In this document: one piece after another, positions 20,126 through 26,678 of the stretch | How the letters are laid out: each line of letters begins with the position of its first letter | Position numbering within the stretch: position 1 is the stretch's first letter | Notes under the pieces: model-generated | Told to the model about the DNA's origin: nothing | What the model saw: only the letters and a program-made list of their open reading frames with translations | Database searches by the model: none | Translations under genes and position numbers: made by a program | Source of the DNA: Actinomycetota bacterium | GTDB taxonomy: Bacteria > Actinomycetota > Aquicultoria > CAJVYJ01 > JAUVQD01 | Direction: 5' to 3' | DNA: 54,070 nt | Assembly (NCBI GenBank): GCA_030679975.1 | Contig: JAUXSL010000022.1 | Location: 1 to 54,070, forward strand

Positions 20126-20148
20126 CCGCTTGACATTGGGCGTTCATC
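20126..20148 (+). other. Possible attC right-half remnant (L'-R') at the left edge of the array
   Basis: ccgcttgacattgggcgttcatc resembles the 3' halves of the other sites, for example ccgctgaacgtgggcgttatgc at 24679-24700. No matching left half is present. Confidence 0.35.
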
Positions 20149-20391
20149 AATCGAAGAATAATTCTGCGTCATTATTATGGTTCTTCCGCATAATAATAAT
20201 TATTGAACATTATCAGCACTCAAAGAGCTCAACTCGAGTTGGCCCCATTTACATTGCCCATTTGGCGTCTAATTGCCTAAAATGCGATAAAATATAGAAG
20301 AAAGATAAAAGACACTGTTATGCTAAAAGAAAAGGCAACATAAAGCGCCGTCAAGGTAAAGGTTGACTCAAATAAAAGGAGGCACGATCTG

Positions 20392-20577
20392 ATGGAGCAG
20401 TTGCGCGTAAGTATTTCGCTGGATAGAGCAATGCTTGGCAAGGTTGGCGGATATTACTTGTATCGCAGTCAAGAAGAGCAGAGCGGCAGACCGATAATCG
20501 ATGGCGTGTATGTCCAGCGCGAGACAATTGGCGATGTCCCTCCTGCGACCATGACTCTTTTGCTGGAGTGGGAGTAA
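20392..20577 (+). CDS. Small hypothetical protein (61 aa)
   Basis: Strong RBS AAAGGAGG at 20375-20382, 9 nt upstream of the ATG. I recognise no family. Confidence 0.45.
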   Translation: MEQLRVSISLDRAMLGKVGGYYLYRSQEEQSGRPIIDGVYVQRETIGDVPPATMTLLLEWE

Positions 20578-20673
20578 AATAAACTCCTGCAAAGCGTTCT
20601 GCTCGTATACCGGGTTGCTGGCAAAAGCTCATGAGCCACGTCAACTGTGCATATTCATTGGGAAGGGATCGCT

Positions 20674-21306
20674 ATGGGAATATTTTCCAAACTATTCGGG
20701 TCATCATCAGCTATTGAGCAAGAATTAAGAGTAACTTACATACCGATAATTCAGAGGATGATGGCGGGCGAGGTGTCAGCATCAGAAGCGGAAAGCATGT
20801 TCAATGATTTGCTTAGGGACATCAAGAATGAGTCTCTGAGCGAAGGCACCTCCAACTTACCGGCTAATTACGGCGATGTCCTATTGCAAAAAGAAGTCAA
20901 TGATGAGGAAACTCGCTTGATATTATCAAAGAAGCGAACTGAAGGCGTAAGAGATGAAGATATTAGATCCTGGTGGAACATGCATGATCTTGAAAGACGA
21001 ATGGCTATCAAGGTTGATGATTTCTATAGGATGTGTTTCGGGATCGAGGAGTTTAAGCAATCGACCGGAGATTTGGACGAAATAGCCGCGCGCATTAGAA
21101 AAATCTTCCCGATTTACGGAGACCCCGATGATACGTCCAACACCACGGGGGCCGACACACCACTGCCTTATGAATTGAAGGATAGAATAAACAAATACAT
21201 CGAAAAAACTATGCAAACGAACGCTGAAAAAAGTAAGAAAGAGATCAAGGCGTCATCAACTTATAATGCTTTTGTCAGAAAAGAGATCGCAAAGGGCAAC
21301 ATTTAG
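20674..21306 (+). CDS. Hypothetical cassette protein (210 aa), no recognisable domain
   Basis: Long ORF in an AT-rich context with RBS GGAAGGG 6 nt upstream of the ATG at 20674. It is followed by attC site 1. Confidence 0.6.
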   Translation: MGIFSKLFGSSSAIEQELRVTYIPIIQRMMAGEVSASEAESMFNDLLRDIKNESLSEGTSNLPANYGDVLLQKEVNDEETRLILSKKRTEGVRDEDIRSWWNMHDLERRMAIKVDDFYRMCFGIEEFKQSTGDLDEIAARIRKIFPIYGDPDDTSNTTGADTPLPYELKDRINKYIEKTMQTNAEKSKKEIKASSTYNAFVRKEIAKGNI

Positions 21307-21388
21307 GGCCATTCTGGCAAAATCGCCACTTCTTTGCCTGCCAAGGAAAGGCGTATTTAGATCTGGCTCTTAGAAATGGAAGGGCCTA

Positions 21389-21451
21389 GCATAACAATAA
21401 AATCCAGCGGATGCTTAAACGCGGCAAAAGCAGCCGCATTTAACCACCGCT
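21389..21451 (+). other. attC site 1, left part (R'' GCATAAC, L'' CCAGCGG, central stem), interrupted by an IS
   Basis: gcataacaataaaatccagcggatgcttaaacgcggcaaaagcagccgcatttaaccaccgct. The continuation gctgatttaaagcgttatct lies at 22657-22676. Confidence 0.8.
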
Positions 21452-22659
21452 CGTATCTTAACTTTCCGTTAAAATCAAACCGAGCACTGCTTAGGCCGGA
21501 AGGGCGTGGCAGACCGACCACCGTTTGGTTGCAGTAACGCAGACCGTAACTCAGCTTGGGTCGTCACGCCCTCTTCCTGCAAAGCCCGAACAGTTGTAAG
21601 GGCCAATCAATGCGAAGCCCGCATTTGCGAGGACGGGACAAAAGGAAGGTGATGCAAGTGGAACTATTTGTGGGTATTGATGTCTCAAAAACCAGGCTAG
21701 ATGTCGATTGTGCGCCGGAGTCGAGAAGCTACTCCGCCGAGAACAGCGATGAGGGCGTGGGCTTATTGGTGGACAATCTGAAAGAAATCGGTCCAACCCT
21801 GATTGTATTGGAGGCAACCGGCGGCTATGAGGCTGCTGCAGTCGCAGCTATTGCCGAAGCAGGTCTTCCGGTTGTTGTTGCAAATCCTAGAAATGTCAGG
21901 GCTTTCGCGAGAGCAACGGGGCGATTGGCTAAGACCGACGCACTAGACGCGCAAGTATTGGCAGAGTTCGCCATGATTATTAAACCAAAGGTCAGAGATC
22001 TGCCGGACGCTGTGAGTGCCGAGCTCAAAGCTTTGTCGACCAGAAGACGCCAGCTAATCGAAATGTTGGTTGCCGAGGGCAATCGGCTTAGCGCCGCGCC
22101 TAAACCGGTGCGGCCGAATATCGAGGCTCACATCAATTGGCTTAAAGATGAGCTAAAAAAGCTGGACGGCGATATTTCATCATTCATTAAAGCCAATGTC
22201 TCTTATCAGGAAAAAGACCAGATACTTAAAAGTGCGCCAGGTATCGGTCCGGTTATCTCAACCATGCTCCTTTCGGAATTGCCGGAACTCGGCACTCTAA
22301 ATCGCAAACAGATATCGGCCCTCGTTGGTGTGGCGCCGTTCAACCGAGACAGCGGCAAGTTTCGAGGCAAACGCAGGGTGTATGGCGGCCGGGCGAATGT
22401 GCGCACCGCGCTTTATATGGGAGCACTGGTAGCGACTAGACACAATCCCGTCATCAAAGAATTCTATGCTCGTCTGATTGAAGCCGGCAAACCGGCCAAG
22501 GTAGCGCTTGTCGCTTGCACGCGCAAATTGCTTACAATCTTAAACTCTATGGTTAAGCATCAAAGAACTTGGCAGGAACGCTCTCTTGCGATTTGTTGTT
22601 AATTCTTTCATTCTTGTACTTTGAAAACTAAATAATTGTTTTCAGTTAAGACAGTTGCT
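21452..22659 (+). mobile_element. IS110-family insertion sequence inserted within attC site 1
   Basis: A DEDD transposase ORF is flanked by a 200-nt 5' and a ~55-nt 3' non-coding end. Subterminal inverted repeats tcttaact (21456-21463) and agttaaga (22644-22651) are present. The same gct trinucleotide sits at both junctions. Confidence 0.85.
21652..22602 (+). CDS. IS110-family DEDD transposase/recombinase
   Basis: Has [21 protein letters not shown], the [17 protein letters not shown] motifs and a C-terminal Transposase_20-like region. RBS AAGGAAGG lies upstream of the ATG at 21652. Confidence 0.9.
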
Positions 22660-22676
22660 GATTTAAAGCGTTATCT
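22657..22676 (+). other. attC site 1, right part (L' GCTGA, R' GTTATCT)
   Basis: gctgatttaaagcgttatct completes the site split at 21451. Compare the intact ccgctgatttaagacgttaggc at 23551-23572. Confidence 0.75.
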
Positions 22677-22878
22677 CAATAAATTTACAGTCGGACGAAA
22701 AGGGCAAGCGCCCGCTCAGTCATGGACGCGGTCGCTAAAATTTAAAGGCATAAGGGCTCGGTGGCCAATTAATAAAGGCTCGTTTCCAATCTAGTTACTC
22801 GGCATCACCTGCTAGTCCGCGCCAGACAGACATGCAATCGTTGCCCTTTTAACCAAGCGTTGTAAAATGAAGGGCGAG

Positions 22879-22958
22879 AGATAACAAGTCACTCCAGCGG
22901 ATTTCTGAAACGGCCAAAAGCATGCCGCCTCAGAAACCGCTGAACTCAAGCGTTATCT
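22879..22958 (+). other. attC site 2
   Basis: R'' AGATAAC is perfectly complementary to R' GTTATCT. L'' TCCAGCGG pairs with L' CCGCTGAA with one extra base. The central stem is imperfect. Confidence 0.85.
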
Positions 22959-25808: not shown

Positions 25809-25865
25809 TTCAACGTGTTGAGTCGTGTTTGAAGTTCTTAGAAGCAAACAATAATGTGATAAATC

Positions 25866-25944
25866 GCTCAACAAGTCGTTCCAGCGGTGGTTACCTGCGC
25901 CAAAAGCAGGCGCAGGTAACCACCGCTGAACTTTAGCGTTAGGC
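25866..25944 (+). other. attC site 6
   Basis: R'' GCTCAAC, L'' TTCCAGCGG, a 15-bp near-perfect central stem (tggttacctgcgcc/ggcgcaggtaacca), L' CCGCTGAA and R' GTTAGGC. Confidence 0.88.
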
Positions 25945-25955
25945 CAAATTAACAG

Positions 25956-25984
25956 TTGCACGGTATCAGTGAAGATGCTAATCT
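25956..25984 (+). promoter_or_regulatory. Candidate cassette-internal promoter for higBA-2
   Basis: TTGCAC, a 17-nt spacer, then TAATCT. RBS GAGGAA lies upstream of the TTG start at 26003. Confidence 0.4.
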
Positions 25985-26002
25985 TTTCAAGAGGAAACCG
26001 AA

Positions 26003-26293
26003 TTGATAACTTCTTTTGGCGACAAGGCGACTGAAAATTTATATCATGGCCTGACAAGCAAAGAAACCAGAAAATATCCAAACGACCTAATTAAGATAGC
26101 GGTTCGCAAACTTGATATGCTCAATGGTACGCAGGACTTAAAGGATATTCGGTCGCCGCCAGGTAATCAATTAGAAGCATTAAAAGGTAATCTAAAGGGA
26201 TTTTTCAGCATTAGAGTCAATAGCCAATGGCGAATAATTTTCAAATGGGAATCCAAGCAAGCCAAAGAAGTTAAACTGACGGATTATCATTAG
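26003..26293 (+). CDS. higB: HigB-like toxin (plasmid maintenance system killer family)
   Basis: MITSFGDKATENLY...QWRIIFKW....EVKLTDYH*, with an intact canonical C-terminus. Confidence 0.85.
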   Translation: MITSFGDKATENLYHGLTSKETRKYPNDLIKIAVRKLDMLNGTQDLKDIRSPPGNQLEALKGNLKGFFSIRVNSQWRIIFKWESKQAKEVKLTDYH

Positions 26294-26304
26294 CGTTAGG
26301 AGTT

Positions 26305-26595
26305 GTGATGTTGCCGAAAAACAGAGTGCCGACCCATCCAGGGGAGATTTTAAGCGAAGAGTTCTTGGTACCTATGGGCATTACACAAGTGGCTTTAGCA
26401 AAGCATCTGGGTGTTTCGCCACAAAGAATCAATGAGCTTGTTCGTGGGAAAAGGGGTATTACGCCGGAGACCGCATGGCTGCTTTCTCAGGCTTTTGATA
26501 CCACCCCCGAATTCTGGATCAATTTACAATCCGCCTATGATCTTGTGGTCAATCATCCTAAAACAGAAATCACCAAGCTCAAGAATGTTAGCTAG
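26305..26595 (+). CDS. higA: HigA family antitoxin (HTH_3/VapI)
   Basis: Has HPGEILSEEFL...LAKHLGVSPQRINELVRGKRGITPETAWLLSQAFDTTPEFWINLQ. Confidence 0.88.
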   Translation: MMLPKNRVPTHPGEILSEEFLVPMGITQVALAKHLGVSPQRINELVRGKRGITPETAWLLSQAFDTTPEFWINLQSAYDLVVNHPKTEITKLKNVS

Positions 26596-26604
26596 TGGCC
26601 ATGG

Positions 26605-26678
26605 GCCTAACATTGCGTTCCAGCGGATCGCTACCTCGGCTGTTCGCTGGTAGCGGCTGCTGAACTCAGGCGTTAAGG
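26605..26678 (+). other. attC site 7 (74 bp), terminal site of the array
   Basis: R'' GCCTAAC, L'' TTCCAGCGG, central stem, L' GCTGCTGAA and R' GTTAAGG. R' overlaps the stop codon of the convergent pfpI gene. Confidence 0.88.

Follow-up and report, generated by a model that had tools for sequence, protein, structure and literature searches.

Within the window, by which we mean the whole stretch of 54,070 nucleotides analysed, the region from about 20115 to 26672 is very probably a decaying chromosomal CALIN (a cluster of integron gene cassettes without an integrase), probably acquired horizontally and lying between the pfpI stop codon and the moaDE promoter of a host that probably belongs to the Actinomycetota, where integron elements are very seldom met. 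About seven cassettes, all in one orientation, carry mostly toxin-antitoxin genes (hicBA, two higBA, relE-XRE, and DUF4258-DUF2283), and three toxin genes are damaged by frameshift or truncation.

Identity of the attC sites

The repeated units of the window are attC sites of integron type. A covariance model, R1, derived solely from attC sites of class 1 integrons on clinical plasmids, seven in number (those of aadA1, aadA2, aadB, blaVIM-2, aacA4, arr-3, and aac(6')-29a), and from none of the window, matched five complete attC sites in the 54 kb (attC2, attC3, attC4, attC6, and attC7 below), all on the + strand, with 29.5-45.8 bits and E-values of 1e-5 to 3e-10, which are only roughly calibrated, the model being based on seven sequences (5.2 effective). 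The attC-model check proposed in an earlier note on this DNA, made from the letters alone, therefore yielded significant matches. In the rest of the window the next best match had E > 1, and control plus relatives' DNA, 794 kb in all, gave none at E <= 1. The seven units listed in that note all held, as five exact R1 matches, one site split by an IS110-family element, and one left half, and all R1 matches share the single orientation claimed for them; a right-half remnant at 22993-23020 had been missed. Of the six recognisable attC sites, three are intact, attC3 is chimeric, attC7 has a mutated L', and attC1 is split by the IS110-family element; with the two half sites, they are:

21389-21451, + strand: left part of attC1 (R'', L'', central stem, and start of L')
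22657-22676, + strand: right part of attC1 (remaining L', spacer, and R' GTTATCT)
22879-22958, + strand: attC2, intact (R1 29.5 bits, E 1.2e-5)
22993-23020, + strand: right-half attC remnant, L'-spacer-R' AGCGGCCGCTGAACAGAAGGCGTTAAGT, right motif at 22998-23016
23493-23572, + strand: attC3, chimeric (R1 36.8 bits)
24627-24700, + strand: attC4, intact (R1 41.1 bits, E 7e-9)
25394-25415, + strand: attC5, left half only, R''-spacer-L'' (R1 only 9.3 bits, E 4.9)
25866-25944, + strand: attC6, intact (R1 35.1 bits)
26605-26678, + strand: attC7, last site (R1 45.8 bits, E 3e-10)

The sequence TCCAGCGG occurs in eight copies in the 54 kb, seven of them on the + strand from 21403 to 26626, and both the left motif AAC-N5-8-CCAGCGG and the right motif CYGCTGA-N5-9-GTT are concentrated in this same region. 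The common R/L-box architecture described previously is borne out by this clustering and by the canonical boxes of the bottom-strand folds, in which the architecture of the aadA1 attC recurs: an R stem, an unpaired spacer, an L stem bearing a bulged T and a bulged G, and a variable tip. These two single-base bulges are separated by 6 nt (7 nt in aadA1). Moreover, L'' is one base longer than L', as had been observed, since the reverse complement of GTTCCAGCGG reads CCGCTG-G-AAC against CCGCTGAAC. The central arms, reported as variable in sequence, are indeed identical at only 16-30 of 36 positions between attC types, yet self-complementary.

Rejoined in silico without the IS, attC1 adopts a canonical attC fold in which both T and G are bulged (-21.7 kcal/mol, z -6.7). 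The bottom strand of attC2 folds at -21.1 kcal/mol (z -7.7), attC4 shows T52/G58 bulges (z -4.9), and the stem of attC6, a perfect 20-bp inverted repeat, reaches -29.6 kcal/mol (z -8.0) with a bulged G. Folding, which had been suggested as a check, thus recovered R/L boxes and extrahelical bases, but not equally well at every site: attC3, in which the arm comparison shows an attC6-like left arm joined to a right arm that matches attC2 exactly, folds poorly (z only -2.2), and attC7, with L' mutated to CTGCTGA (CTGCTG), folds weakly (z -2.3). The R' of attC7, GTTAAGG, overlaps the pfpI stop codon (26673-26675), and a relE gene, of which the C-terminal part remains, is fused to the attC5 half site. 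From sequence and fold, the window sites are predicted to have attC function.

REP-like or terminator-like palindromes of the host, unrelated to integrons, would share with these repeats an imperfectly palindromic form and a position after ORFs, and one repeat was picked up on the minus strand by a simple terminator scan. Such an origin is hardly credible, because no copy lies in the other 47.5 kb of the window, the repeats are absent from the relatives' syntenic DNA and the 794 kb of controls, the match to the clinical-attC model is strand-asymmetric (41-46 bits on + versus 11 bits on -), the stems lack a trailing T-run, and the same repeat type flanks cassettes beside integron integrases. 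The earlier note had named three outcomes that would speak against an array (no significant model hits, a dispersed repeat, and relatives with the same genes at this locus); instead, the model matches were significant, the repeat was not dispersed beyond the island, and the relatives lack these genes there, so none of the three was observed.

Cassettes and their cargo

The cargo of the array and the element inserted in attC1 are as follows:

20325-21388, + strand: cassette 1 cargo, ORFs of 61 aa (20392-20577) and about 210 aa (20674-21306)
21452-22656, + strand: IS110-family IS of 1.2 kb, inside attC1 L'
21652-22602, + strand: IS110-family transposase (Pfam DEDD_Tnp_IS110 and Transposase_20)
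22677-22878, + strand: cassette 2 body, ORF-less, with promoter-like TTGCCC-16-TAAAAT (22841-22868) pointing downstream
23051-23486, + strand: hicB-like antitoxin (23051-23272) and hicA toxin (23253-23486), by Pfam
23595-24632, + strand: cassette 4 cargo, T5orf172 (23595-24167), DUF4258-like (about 24192-24417), and DUF2283 (24414-24632)
24752-25362, + strand: higB-1 (24752-25051) and higA-1 (25048-25362); Pfam HigB-like_toxin 4.7e-21 and HTH_3
25416-25808, + strand: relE/parE C-terminal remnant (to 25540) and XRE-family HTH gene (25521-25808)
26003-26595, + strand: higB-2 (26003-26293) and higA-2 (26305-26595); Pfam HigB-like_toxin 1.2e-21 and HTH_3 7e-13

These Pfam assignments agree with the cargo named earlier. 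For hicBA, HicA_toxin was matched at 1.6e-15 and HicB_lk/UPF0150 weakly, and the two cassette 1 ORFs match no known family. The DUF4258-like gene of cassette 4 is frameshifted, and the C-terminal DYH-stop of higB-1 is out of frame. Stop codons in or just before R'' had been claimed for two cases; that of DUF2283 (24630-24632) lies inside the R'' of attC4, and the other ORFs stop 6-80 nt upstream of R''. The cassette 2 body matches L152:586-884 at 87% identity and L058 at 72%, and is attC-bounded there too; L152 is a different array in which this ORF-less cassette sits between two attC sites. Furthermore, positions 24229-24584 of cassette 4 show 69% nucleotide identity to L172. The IS was seen in one copy, with both junctions borne out by the independent contig L191, and its transposase is about 50% identical to plasmid-borne IS110-family transposases.

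Insertion site and junctions

The array is an insertion into a conserved pfpI-moaDE backbone, whose two native flanks are:

19385-20053, - strand: moaD-moaE fusion gene, left flank (Pfam ThiS and MoaE)
26673-27200, - strand: pfpI (DJ-1/PfpI family), right flank (Pfam 7e-55)

A promoter-like TTTACA-17-TATGCT precedes moaDE at 20089..20061, and relatives L182, L185, and L188 share this conserved motif. The PfpI of the window is 61-68% identical to the moaDE-adjoining PfpI of relatives; pfpI lies 51-110 bp from moaDE in L185-L188, L190, and L196, and other genes adjoin moaDE in L182, L193, and L197. When the moaDE-pfpI junction was compared, as the earlier note had advised, R1 found no attC at the moaDE locus in the relatives examined. 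The island (6.6 kb) has 46.2% GC versus 56.1% in the remaining window, in line with the AT-richness noticed before. Simple vertical descent does not account for this history, since the island is missing from the closest relative seen (L197, 87% nucleotide identity) and its left end is found in the more distant L192 (81%).

A mis-assembly that joined the array of another organism to this chromosome would fit an island GC 10 points below the flanks, a right junction falling on a repeated element (attC7), and short-read assemblies that break within the array (Logan contig ends at 20186, 21422/22871, and 24113). We hold it to be highly improbable, as both junctions are spanned by independent Logan contigs from the same run, the left one by L001 (18987-20186, 100% identical to the window) and the right one by L002 (24113-31579, 99.97% identical), which joins 2.6 kb of array to 4.9 kb of chromosome; in addition, the related genome L192, which comes from a different sample (run ERR14790946), shares this foreign left end and its native breakpoint.

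Integrase and left end of the array

No intI or remnant of it was detected in the whole 54 kb by tblastn with IntI1 and three metagenomic IntI proteins, even at E <= 50; the best E-value of the IntI queries in the window was 0.026, away from the array. Pfam found no recombinase except the IS110 transposase among 31 ORFs, a set that takes in every ORF of the array and its borders and each major ORF between 18.6 and 53.4 kb. With no detectable integrase or remnant in 54 kb, the reading of the array as a CALIN, already put forward in the earlier note, is supported, and it agrees with the clinical-attC model, the folds, the intI-adjacent attC type, and the recurring cassette. The attC signature of the window, for which we estimate a chance expectation of about 2e-4 matches per Gb, is present on at least 120 metagenome contigs, 10 of them with IntI1 homologues, and four IntI proteins score 349-496 bits on TIGR02249 'integron integrase' (cutoff 265). 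All attC matches lie on one side of intI and on the opposite strand in L136, L151, and L165, and they flank intI on both sides in L112; several signature contigs have genuine integron integrases pointing away from the array.

Two segments make up the left end:

20115-20215, no strand assigned: AT-rich leftmost island segment, with promoter-like TTGACA-18-AAGAAT (+) and a 9-bp inverted repeat
20216-20324, + strand: candidate attI-like region, 105-bp AT-rich, ending in core GTTATGC (20318-20324)

The leftmost segment is missing from L192 and L197, the homology of the latter stopping at 20114, and gave no intI remnant by tblastn with IntI proteins. AT-rich DNA left of the first GTTATGC is likewise missing from L185, L188, L196, and L197. 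No attI had been recognised previously; the comparison with L192 revises this, because the left end finishes in GTTATGC and is common to one relative, which makes 20216-20324 a candidate attI. The region is 83% identical to L192:4632-4734, which adjoins the same moaDE promoter at the same native breakpoint, and the promoter scan found in it a promoter-like TTGCCC-18-TAAAAT directed at the cassettes. Its putative attI-like nature is drawn from one relative (L192) and 30 nt beyond the core: 54 of 67 positions are identical through ACTGTTA and then 5 of 30 ungapped, or about 55% of these 30 nt if two gaps are allowed.

This fall in similarity at the GTT is what a different first cassette would produce, and would suit a live satellite array, built or remodelled by an IntI encoded elsewhere in the genome, at a secondary/attG-type or moaDE-side attI-like site; if so, the lineage carries a working integron system. 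About half of CALINs share a replicon with an IntI gene, and for 95% no intI pseudogene lies close by (PMC4889954), genomic GWT sites receive cassettes from integrases (bioRxiv 10.1101/2022.09.11.507474), and the most similar attC arrays (L152, L140, L121; L116) share two metagenomes with host relatives (L183; L186). We nevertheless consider a live array unlikely, though of some weight: of the eight elements derived from attC, the two halves and the IS-split site are non-functional by sequence and two more fold poorly, three toxin genes are damaged, the DNA preceding the first core site is foreign where direct insertion at a native attG would call for native DNA, and L192 covers only 30 nt past the core site.

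For the decaying CALIN that we favour, an integron platform with its attI region would have been acquired horizontally by an ancestor of the lineage, and intI would subsequently have been deleted, or was perhaps never linked to the array. Integrase-independent erosion may have followed, through IS insertion, deletions fusing or halving attC sites, and frameshifts or truncation in the three toxin genes, leaving what would now be mostly inert cargo. Promoters within cassettes (toxin-antitoxin operons and the ORF-less cassette) and the attI-side promoter could drive expression, surviving antitoxin-toxin pairs might aid persistence of the block, and the bottom strands of the three intact attC sites could fold and recombine given an integron integrase in trans.

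Host

The host is probably, although not provenly, an uncultured Actinomycetota with Candidatus Aquicultor-like bacteria nearest, a placement based on submitters' MAG protein labels and in keeping with the Actinobacteriota-like assignment first made. For LepA, identity is 79% with the representative of a cluster including an 'Actinomycetes bacterium' MAG protein and 70-72% with Actinomycetota and Ca. Aquicultor. For LigA, it is 56-58% both with Actinomycetota MAGs and with Ca. Aquicultor secundus and primus. Proteins labelled Firmicutes, Anaerolineae, and Chloroflexi reach similar values. A scan of GTDB representative genomes gave no close LigA relative (best 50%). The rarity of integrons in monoderm phyla mentioned in the earlier note needs one nuance: RefSeq surveys of Actinobacteria report no complete integron and one In0, but also 'a few CALIN' (PMC9024848), so the host is unusual and not unprecedented for a CALIN.

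Comparison with known systems

Like published CALINs, the window array combines two or more co-oriented attC sites, spaced by less than 4 kb, with the absence of intI from the surrounding 4 kb, and it lacks a nearby intI pseudogene, as do 95% of them. It is of typical size (published mean about 5-6 attC; PMC4889954; Neron et al. 2022, PMC9024848) and contains an IS, a feature reported for a quarter of complete integrons (PMC4889954; PMC9024848). It differs in its probable Actinomycetota host, in keeping a candidate attI-like left end, and in an unusually explicit decay, seen in its half sites, its chimeric site, and its damaged toxins.

As in the sedentary chromosomal integrons of Vibrio and Xanthomonas, the array is chromosomal, its attC sites are interrelated, at least its left end occurs in a related genome, and its cargo is mainly toxin-antitoxin genes and unknown ORFs, with one ORF-less cassette and no resistance genes. 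In contrast, it has no integrase and only about seven cassettes versus tens to hundreds, and the closest relative examined is without it, so it is not a stable lineage trait.

With the IS1111-attC group (ISPa21, ISKpn4, and ISPst6; cited in PMC11187229) the inserted IS shares a DEDD transposase and a position within attC, co-oriented with the cassettes. However, its transposase is just 21% identical to that of the IS1111-family IS4321, its longer non-coding region (about 200 nt) lies 5' of tnp in the IS110-type rather than the IS1111-type arrangement, and no subterminal inverted repeats of 11-13 bp were seen (8 bp at most).

Finally, the attC sites of the window are unlinked to intI1, 3'-CS, or resistance genes, unlike those of class 1 integrons, and they measure 74-80 nt versus 60 nt, with different variable stems and an L box of TCCAGCGG/CCGCTGA versus TTCAAGCC/GGCTTAAC. 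Their layout is nevertheless that of the class 1 sites of aadA1 and blaVIM-2: R'' (7 nt), a 6-nt spacer, and L'' with one additional base, then L' GCTGAAC (GCTTAAC in aadA1), a 6-nt spacer, and R' GTTRRRY, with T and G extrahelical on the bottom strand in both.

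Results

attC sites of the array

Of the eight copies of the octamer TCCAGCGG in the 54 kb, seven are on the + strand at 21403-26626, and the seven + strand copies of the left motif (AAC, 5-8 nt, CCAGCGG) all fall within the array stretch, where six copies of the right motif (CYGCTGA, 5-9 nt, GTT) are also found. The region harboring them, an island between moaDE and pfpI, has a GC content of 46.2% versus 56.1% in the rest of the window. Dispersed palindromic repeats of the REP type were considered and rejected, all copies being confined to 21389-26678; the remaining 47.5 kb of the window and the corresponding loci of relatives yielded none.

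At the ends of the sites, an inverse core R'' (RYYYAAC) and a core R' (GTTRRRY) are mutually complementary, as in attC sites. The R''/R' pairs were GCATAAC/GTTATCT, AGATAAC/GTTATCT, ACATAAC/GTTAGGC, GCCTAAC/GTTATGC, GCTCAAC/GTTAGGC, and GCCTAAC/GTTAAGG, in which AAC and GTT are invariant. The spacing equals that of the aadA1, VIM-2, and aacA4 attC sites (R'' of 7 nt, 6 nt, and L''; then L', 6 nt, and R'). Between the arms, the variable terminal structure comprises three to four unrelated stem sequences of 30-36 nt, with a between-type identity of 16-27/36.

Rfam searches returned no integron-related family, only sub-threshold miRNA-hairpin noise on the attC hairpins; therefore, an independent attC test was carried out with a covariance model (R1). 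Nine class 1 integrons were fetched from clinical plasmids as reference, and R1 was built from seven of their aligned attC sites (aadA1, aadA2, aadB, blaVIM-2, aacA4, arr-3, and aac(6')-29a), with pairing limited to the R-box and L-box pairs. Searched with filters off, the window gave five matches, each spanning the full model on the + strand (E 3e-10 to 1e-5):

Matches of the class 1 attC model (R1) in the window
26605-26678, + strand, attC7, 45.8 bits
24627-24700, + strand, attC4, 41.1 bits
23493-23572, + strand, attC3, 36.8 bits
25866-25944, + strand, attC6, 35.1 bits
22879-22958, + strand, attC2, 29.5 bits

Beyond these, the best matches in the window had E > 1; among them were two of the same five sites read on the reverse strand (11 bits) and, at 25394, the half site (9.3 bits). 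Control DNA totaling 794 kb, drawn from 50 loci of other phyla and from the syntenic regions of relatives, gave no match at E <= 1.

Folded as single-stranded DNA, the bottom strands of intact sites reached z-scores of -4.9 to -8.0 against shuffled sequence and resembled aadA1: an R stem of 6-7 bp is followed by a spacer that stays unpaired, then by the L stem and a variable stem-loop. R1 aligned the R pairs, and both its alignments and the folds set the second stem, L''/L', off from the R stem by a short and largely unpaired spacer. Extra L'' bases are extrahelical on the folded bottom strand, the L stem carrying a bulged G (CCGCTG-G-AAC) and a bulged T 6 nt further in. In attC1, attC3, and attC4 these are one-base T and G bulges 6 nt apart (compare T38 and G45 of aadA1); the unconstrained fold of attC6 displays the G bulge, the minimum-free-energy fold of attC2 the T bulge only, and attC7 is degenerate. 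Rejoined without the insertion sequence (IS) that splits it, attC1 folds at -21.7 kcal/mol (z -6.7).

On these comparisons the repeats are identified as integron attC sites, predicted to recombine as a folded bottom strand. The earlier note, which had claimed at least seven attC sites in an integrase-less cassette array, is borne out: motif clustering, GC contrast, and cargo list were all reproduced, R1 was significant on five of the sites that it listed, and the R and L boxes and extrahelical bases were present in the bottom-strand folds. An additional right-half remnant at 22993-23020 (motif at 22998-23016) was absent from its list.

Links to integrases and cassette mobility

Metagenomes were scanned with a pattern of 24 specified bases derived from the sites of the window (AACAAG-N4-TCCAGCGG-N20-50-CCGCTGA-N8-GTT), for which we calculated a chance expectation of about 2e-4 matches per Gb. 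At least 120 metagenome contigs matched, and among the matches listed ten contigs, most of them only 1-5 kb long, carried IntI1 homologues. The four longest metagenomic IntI proteins scored 349-496 bits on the NCBIfam model TIGR02249, "integron integrase" (cutoff 265), and the contigs L165, L112, L136, and L151 have the attC signature of the window beside TIGR02249 integrases. Integrons classically place all attC sites on one side of intI and on the opposite strand, and this layout was found in L136, L151, and L165. In the metagenomic integron L112 (Ga0209986_10005082, 264-10495), attC hits flank intI on both sides with opposing orientations: - strand hits lie at 264 and 1151, + strand hits at 4672-10421. 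Upstream of the TIGR02249 region, the IntI ORFs of L112 and L136 are extended by a long N-terminal stretch.

A 282-bp cassette without an ORF (22673-22954) recurs with 87% identity in the metagenomic array L152 (602-887), where it is again bounded by two attC sites and has different neighbors, and with 72% identity in L058 (1411-1695). Together, the integrase-linked attC sites and this recurrence in two unrelated arrays show that the units behave as discrete cassettes and not as host repeats. The ORF-less cassette has strongly conserved blocks (AAGGGCAAGCGCCC..ATGGACGCGG.CGCTAAAAT) and, at 22841-22868, a promoter-like TTGCCC-16-TAAAAT pointing to the next cassette; a role as mobile promoter or small-RNA cassette is possible. 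RNA structure within it was unsupported, with an unfavorable covariation term (+1.33) from only three sequences. The arrays with attC sites most like those of the window (L152, L140, and L121 of JGI Ga0334722, and L116 of SDBV01) come from the same two metagenomes as the host relatives L183 and L186, and could represent related arrays in related genomes, although a physical connection was not observed.

Integrase, class, and cargo

An IntI1 probe was first checked against annotated intI1 genes, which it matched at 100% identity. Used in tblastn together with three IntI proteins from metagenomes, it found nothing in the window at E <= 1e-3, and at E <= 50 the searches gave only noise, none of it near the array. 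Among 31 ORFs scanned against Pfam (all those in or beside the array and all major ORFs of 18.6-53.4 kb), no recombinase was detected except an IS110-family transposase, and Phage_integrase was not among the families found. The earlier statement that no intI is recognizable to the left holds for the window on both searches. In a complete integron, attI and a Pc promoter would precede the first cassette, and beside attI would stand intI, a tyrosine recombinase with the IntI-specific insertion, directed away from the cassettes; here moaDE occupies the place of intI, and the array is not a complete integron. It consists of five R1 matches 535-1134 bp apart, an IS-split site, and two halves; with no integrase in the window, it is therefore a CALIN, a cassette array defined by two or more attC sites that lie within 4 kb of one another with no integron integrase close by (Cury et al., 2016; Neron et al., 2022).

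By Pfam, the cargo includes HicA paired with a weakly matching HicB-like protein, a protein with a T5orf172 domain, a frameshifted DUF4258-like gene followed by DUF2283, two HigB/HTH pairs, and the C-terminal remnant of a RelE with an XRE gene behind it, assignments that agree with the earlier cargo list. PADLOC detected no defense families in the unknown cassette ORFs.

Island boundaries and relatives

In relatives whose MoaDE is 67-78% identical (L185-L188, L190, and L196), pfpI lies 51-110 bp from moaDE; a TPR gene stands beside moaDE in L182-L184, pfpI occurs without moaDE in L193 and L194, and L197 has another gene there. Compared in this way, as the earlier note had proposed for the moaDE-pfpI junction, the loci of relatives contained pfpI or other genes, and R1 matched no attC in any of them. 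The moaDE promoter motif (TTTACA-17-TATGCT, 20089..20061) is conserved, and homology to the closest relative, L197 (87% nucleotide identity), ends at 20114; therefore, the island begins at 20115. On the right it ends at the R' of attC7 (GTTAAGG, 26672-26678), which overlaps the pfpI stop codon. Independent Logan contigs of the same run cross the two outer junctions as well as the two IS junctions at 99.97-100% identity, and exact-protein look-ups of MoaDE and PfpI matched only contigs of run SRR13727519.

L192, a relative from another sample (81% nucleotide identity), has a native breakpoint identical to that of the window; it lacks 20115-20215 and has 20216-20320 at 83% identity. This AT-rich foreign region of 105 bp ends in GTTATGC, has a promoter-like site at 20254-20283 directed toward the cassettes, and is a candidate attI. 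Because this AT-rich DNA is foreign to the backbone, an imported attI region would explain the left end better than a native secondary site. To our knowledge, attI sites have no general consensus, and no similarity was found between the left end and the attI regions of the metagenomic integrons. L192 and the window share 54 of 67 positions up to ACTGTTA and then 5 of 30 ungapped; the L192 contig stops 30 nt past ACTGTTA, and those 30 nt align at about 55% with two gaps, making thin the suggestion that L192 has a different first cassette.

Within the 101-bp AT-rich segment at 20115-20215 lie an inverted repeat of 9 bp (ATTATTATG/CATAATAAT) and the promoter-like sequence TTGACA-18-AAGAAT. Neither tblastn nor frame reading revealed an intI remnant in 20115-20400, and a native pfpI 3' end at the left junction was unsupported. 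The DNA immediately upstream of the moaDE promoter (20054-20215; compared in L182, L185, L188, L192, L193, L196, and L197) differs in nearly every relative. Depending on the locus, it consists of pfpI, a TPR gene, a different divergent gene, or the array, and moaDE can be missing altogether; this place is a local rearrangement hot spot.

Decay of the array

Three of the eight attC-derived elements are interrupted or incomplete: attC1 is split by an IS, attC5 (25394-25415) is a left half fused to the truncated relE, and a further element is a right half. The left arm of attC3 (TTACCTGCGCCAAAA) matches attC6 and its right arm (CATGCCGCCTCAGAAA) is identical to that of attC2, the arms of this chimera barely pairing (weak fold, z -2.2); attC3 looks like a deletion between two attC sites via their common CCAAAAGCA loop and not like an integrase product. 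In attC7, L' is mutated (z -2.3). Of the five toxin genes, relE, the DUF4258-like gene, and higB-1 (at its C-terminus) are damaged, and the antitoxin partners of these three look intact:

Damaged toxin genes
24192-24417, DUF4258-like gene, frameshifted
24990-25051, end of higB-1, terminal DYH-stop in another frame
25416-25540, relE remnant, only the last ~30 codons left

The observed lesions are not of the kind that an integrase makes, and together they point to a long time without integrase activity on the array.

An IS110-family element (21452-22656) lies within the L' of attC1, with GCT on both sides. Its non-coding sequence measures about 200 nt on the upstream side of tnp and 54 nt on the downstream side, and a long region upstream is the arrangement of bridge-RNA-guided IS110 elements. 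Members of the IS1111-attC group have an IS1111-type transposase, 11-13 bp subterminal inverted repeats, and a long seekRNA region downstream of tnp (PMC11187229); membership was ruled out by the 21% identity to the IS4321 transposase and the upstream non-coding region, and the subterminal inverted repeat has 8 bp only (TCTTAACT). Within the upstream non-coding region, guide-like matches were restricted to 7 nt (ACCACCG, 21517) and 8 nt, about chance, and the fetched loci held no further copies of the IS.

Host assignment

Among named organisms, Actinomycetota MAGs and Ca. Aquicultor came nearest for both LepA and LigA. For LepA, identity was 79% with the representative of a protein cluster that contains a protein of an "Actinomycetes bacterium" MAG, and 70-72% with MAGs of Actinomycetota, Ca. 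Aquicultor, and Aquicultorales; for LigA, it was 56-58% with Actinomycetota MAGs, Ca. Aquicultor secundus, and Ca. Aquicultor primus. Some matches of similar identity are labelled Firmicutes, Anaerolineae, or Chloroflexi. Against GTDB representatives LigA had no close relative, the best being a Coriobacteriia MAG (50%) and Omnitrophota (49%). The gene orders ppx-DUF501 and lepA-hemW-hrcA-dnaJ-phoH-pgpH-dgkA, a tad locus without a secretin gene between cpaB and cpaE, and the presence of a SAM riboswitch fit a Terrabacteria-type genome. From marker genes and gene order, the host is probably a member of Actinomycetota.

The SAM (S-box) riboswitch (40673-40783, 85 bits) is upstream of a PLP-dependent enzyme gene (40856-42082). 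At the window edge (10-447), an ORF of 134 aa (10-414) without a Pfam hit overlaps a - strand tRNA gene (364-447).

Discussion

Genome surveys have found no complete integron in Actinomycetota (PMC9024848), and in surveys of complete genomes integrons were essentially missing from Gram-positive phyla, where an unknown mechanism was suggested to hinder their establishment (Cury et al., PMC4889954). The array fits the idea that transfer occurs and stable establishment fails. Because its insertion boundaries are clear, its attI-like end is common to a relative, and its cassettes recur in environmental arrays, it would be a concrete case in which integron DNA entered an uncultured Actinomycetota-like lineage, lasted until shared with a relative, and decayed without an integrase. 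The array is documented in enough detail to serve as a case study of how integron establishment fails or fades in a Gram-positive lineage.

A different account would have the lineage possess, or lately have possessed, its own working chromosomal integron, with the integrase elsewhere, the attI-like site beside moaDE, and cassette turnover since the split from L192. If true, Actinomycetota would have its first native, active integron platform. We consider it unlikely, since the decay argues against a live integron with its integrase elsewhere in the genome. The three intact attC sites and one candidate attI supply defined substrates for asking whether integron recombination can operate in this background.

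Four possible origins of CALINs have been considered, 95% of these arrays having no intI pseudogene nearby (Cury et al., PMC4889954), and cassette insertion at genomic attG sites has been added to them (Loot et al., bioRxiv 10.1101/2022.09.11.507474). Knowledge of the integron mechanism is unchanged by the present array, which has the typical size and the typical toxin-antitoxin-rich cargo of a CALIN; it belongs to a known class, and it is the host that is unusual.
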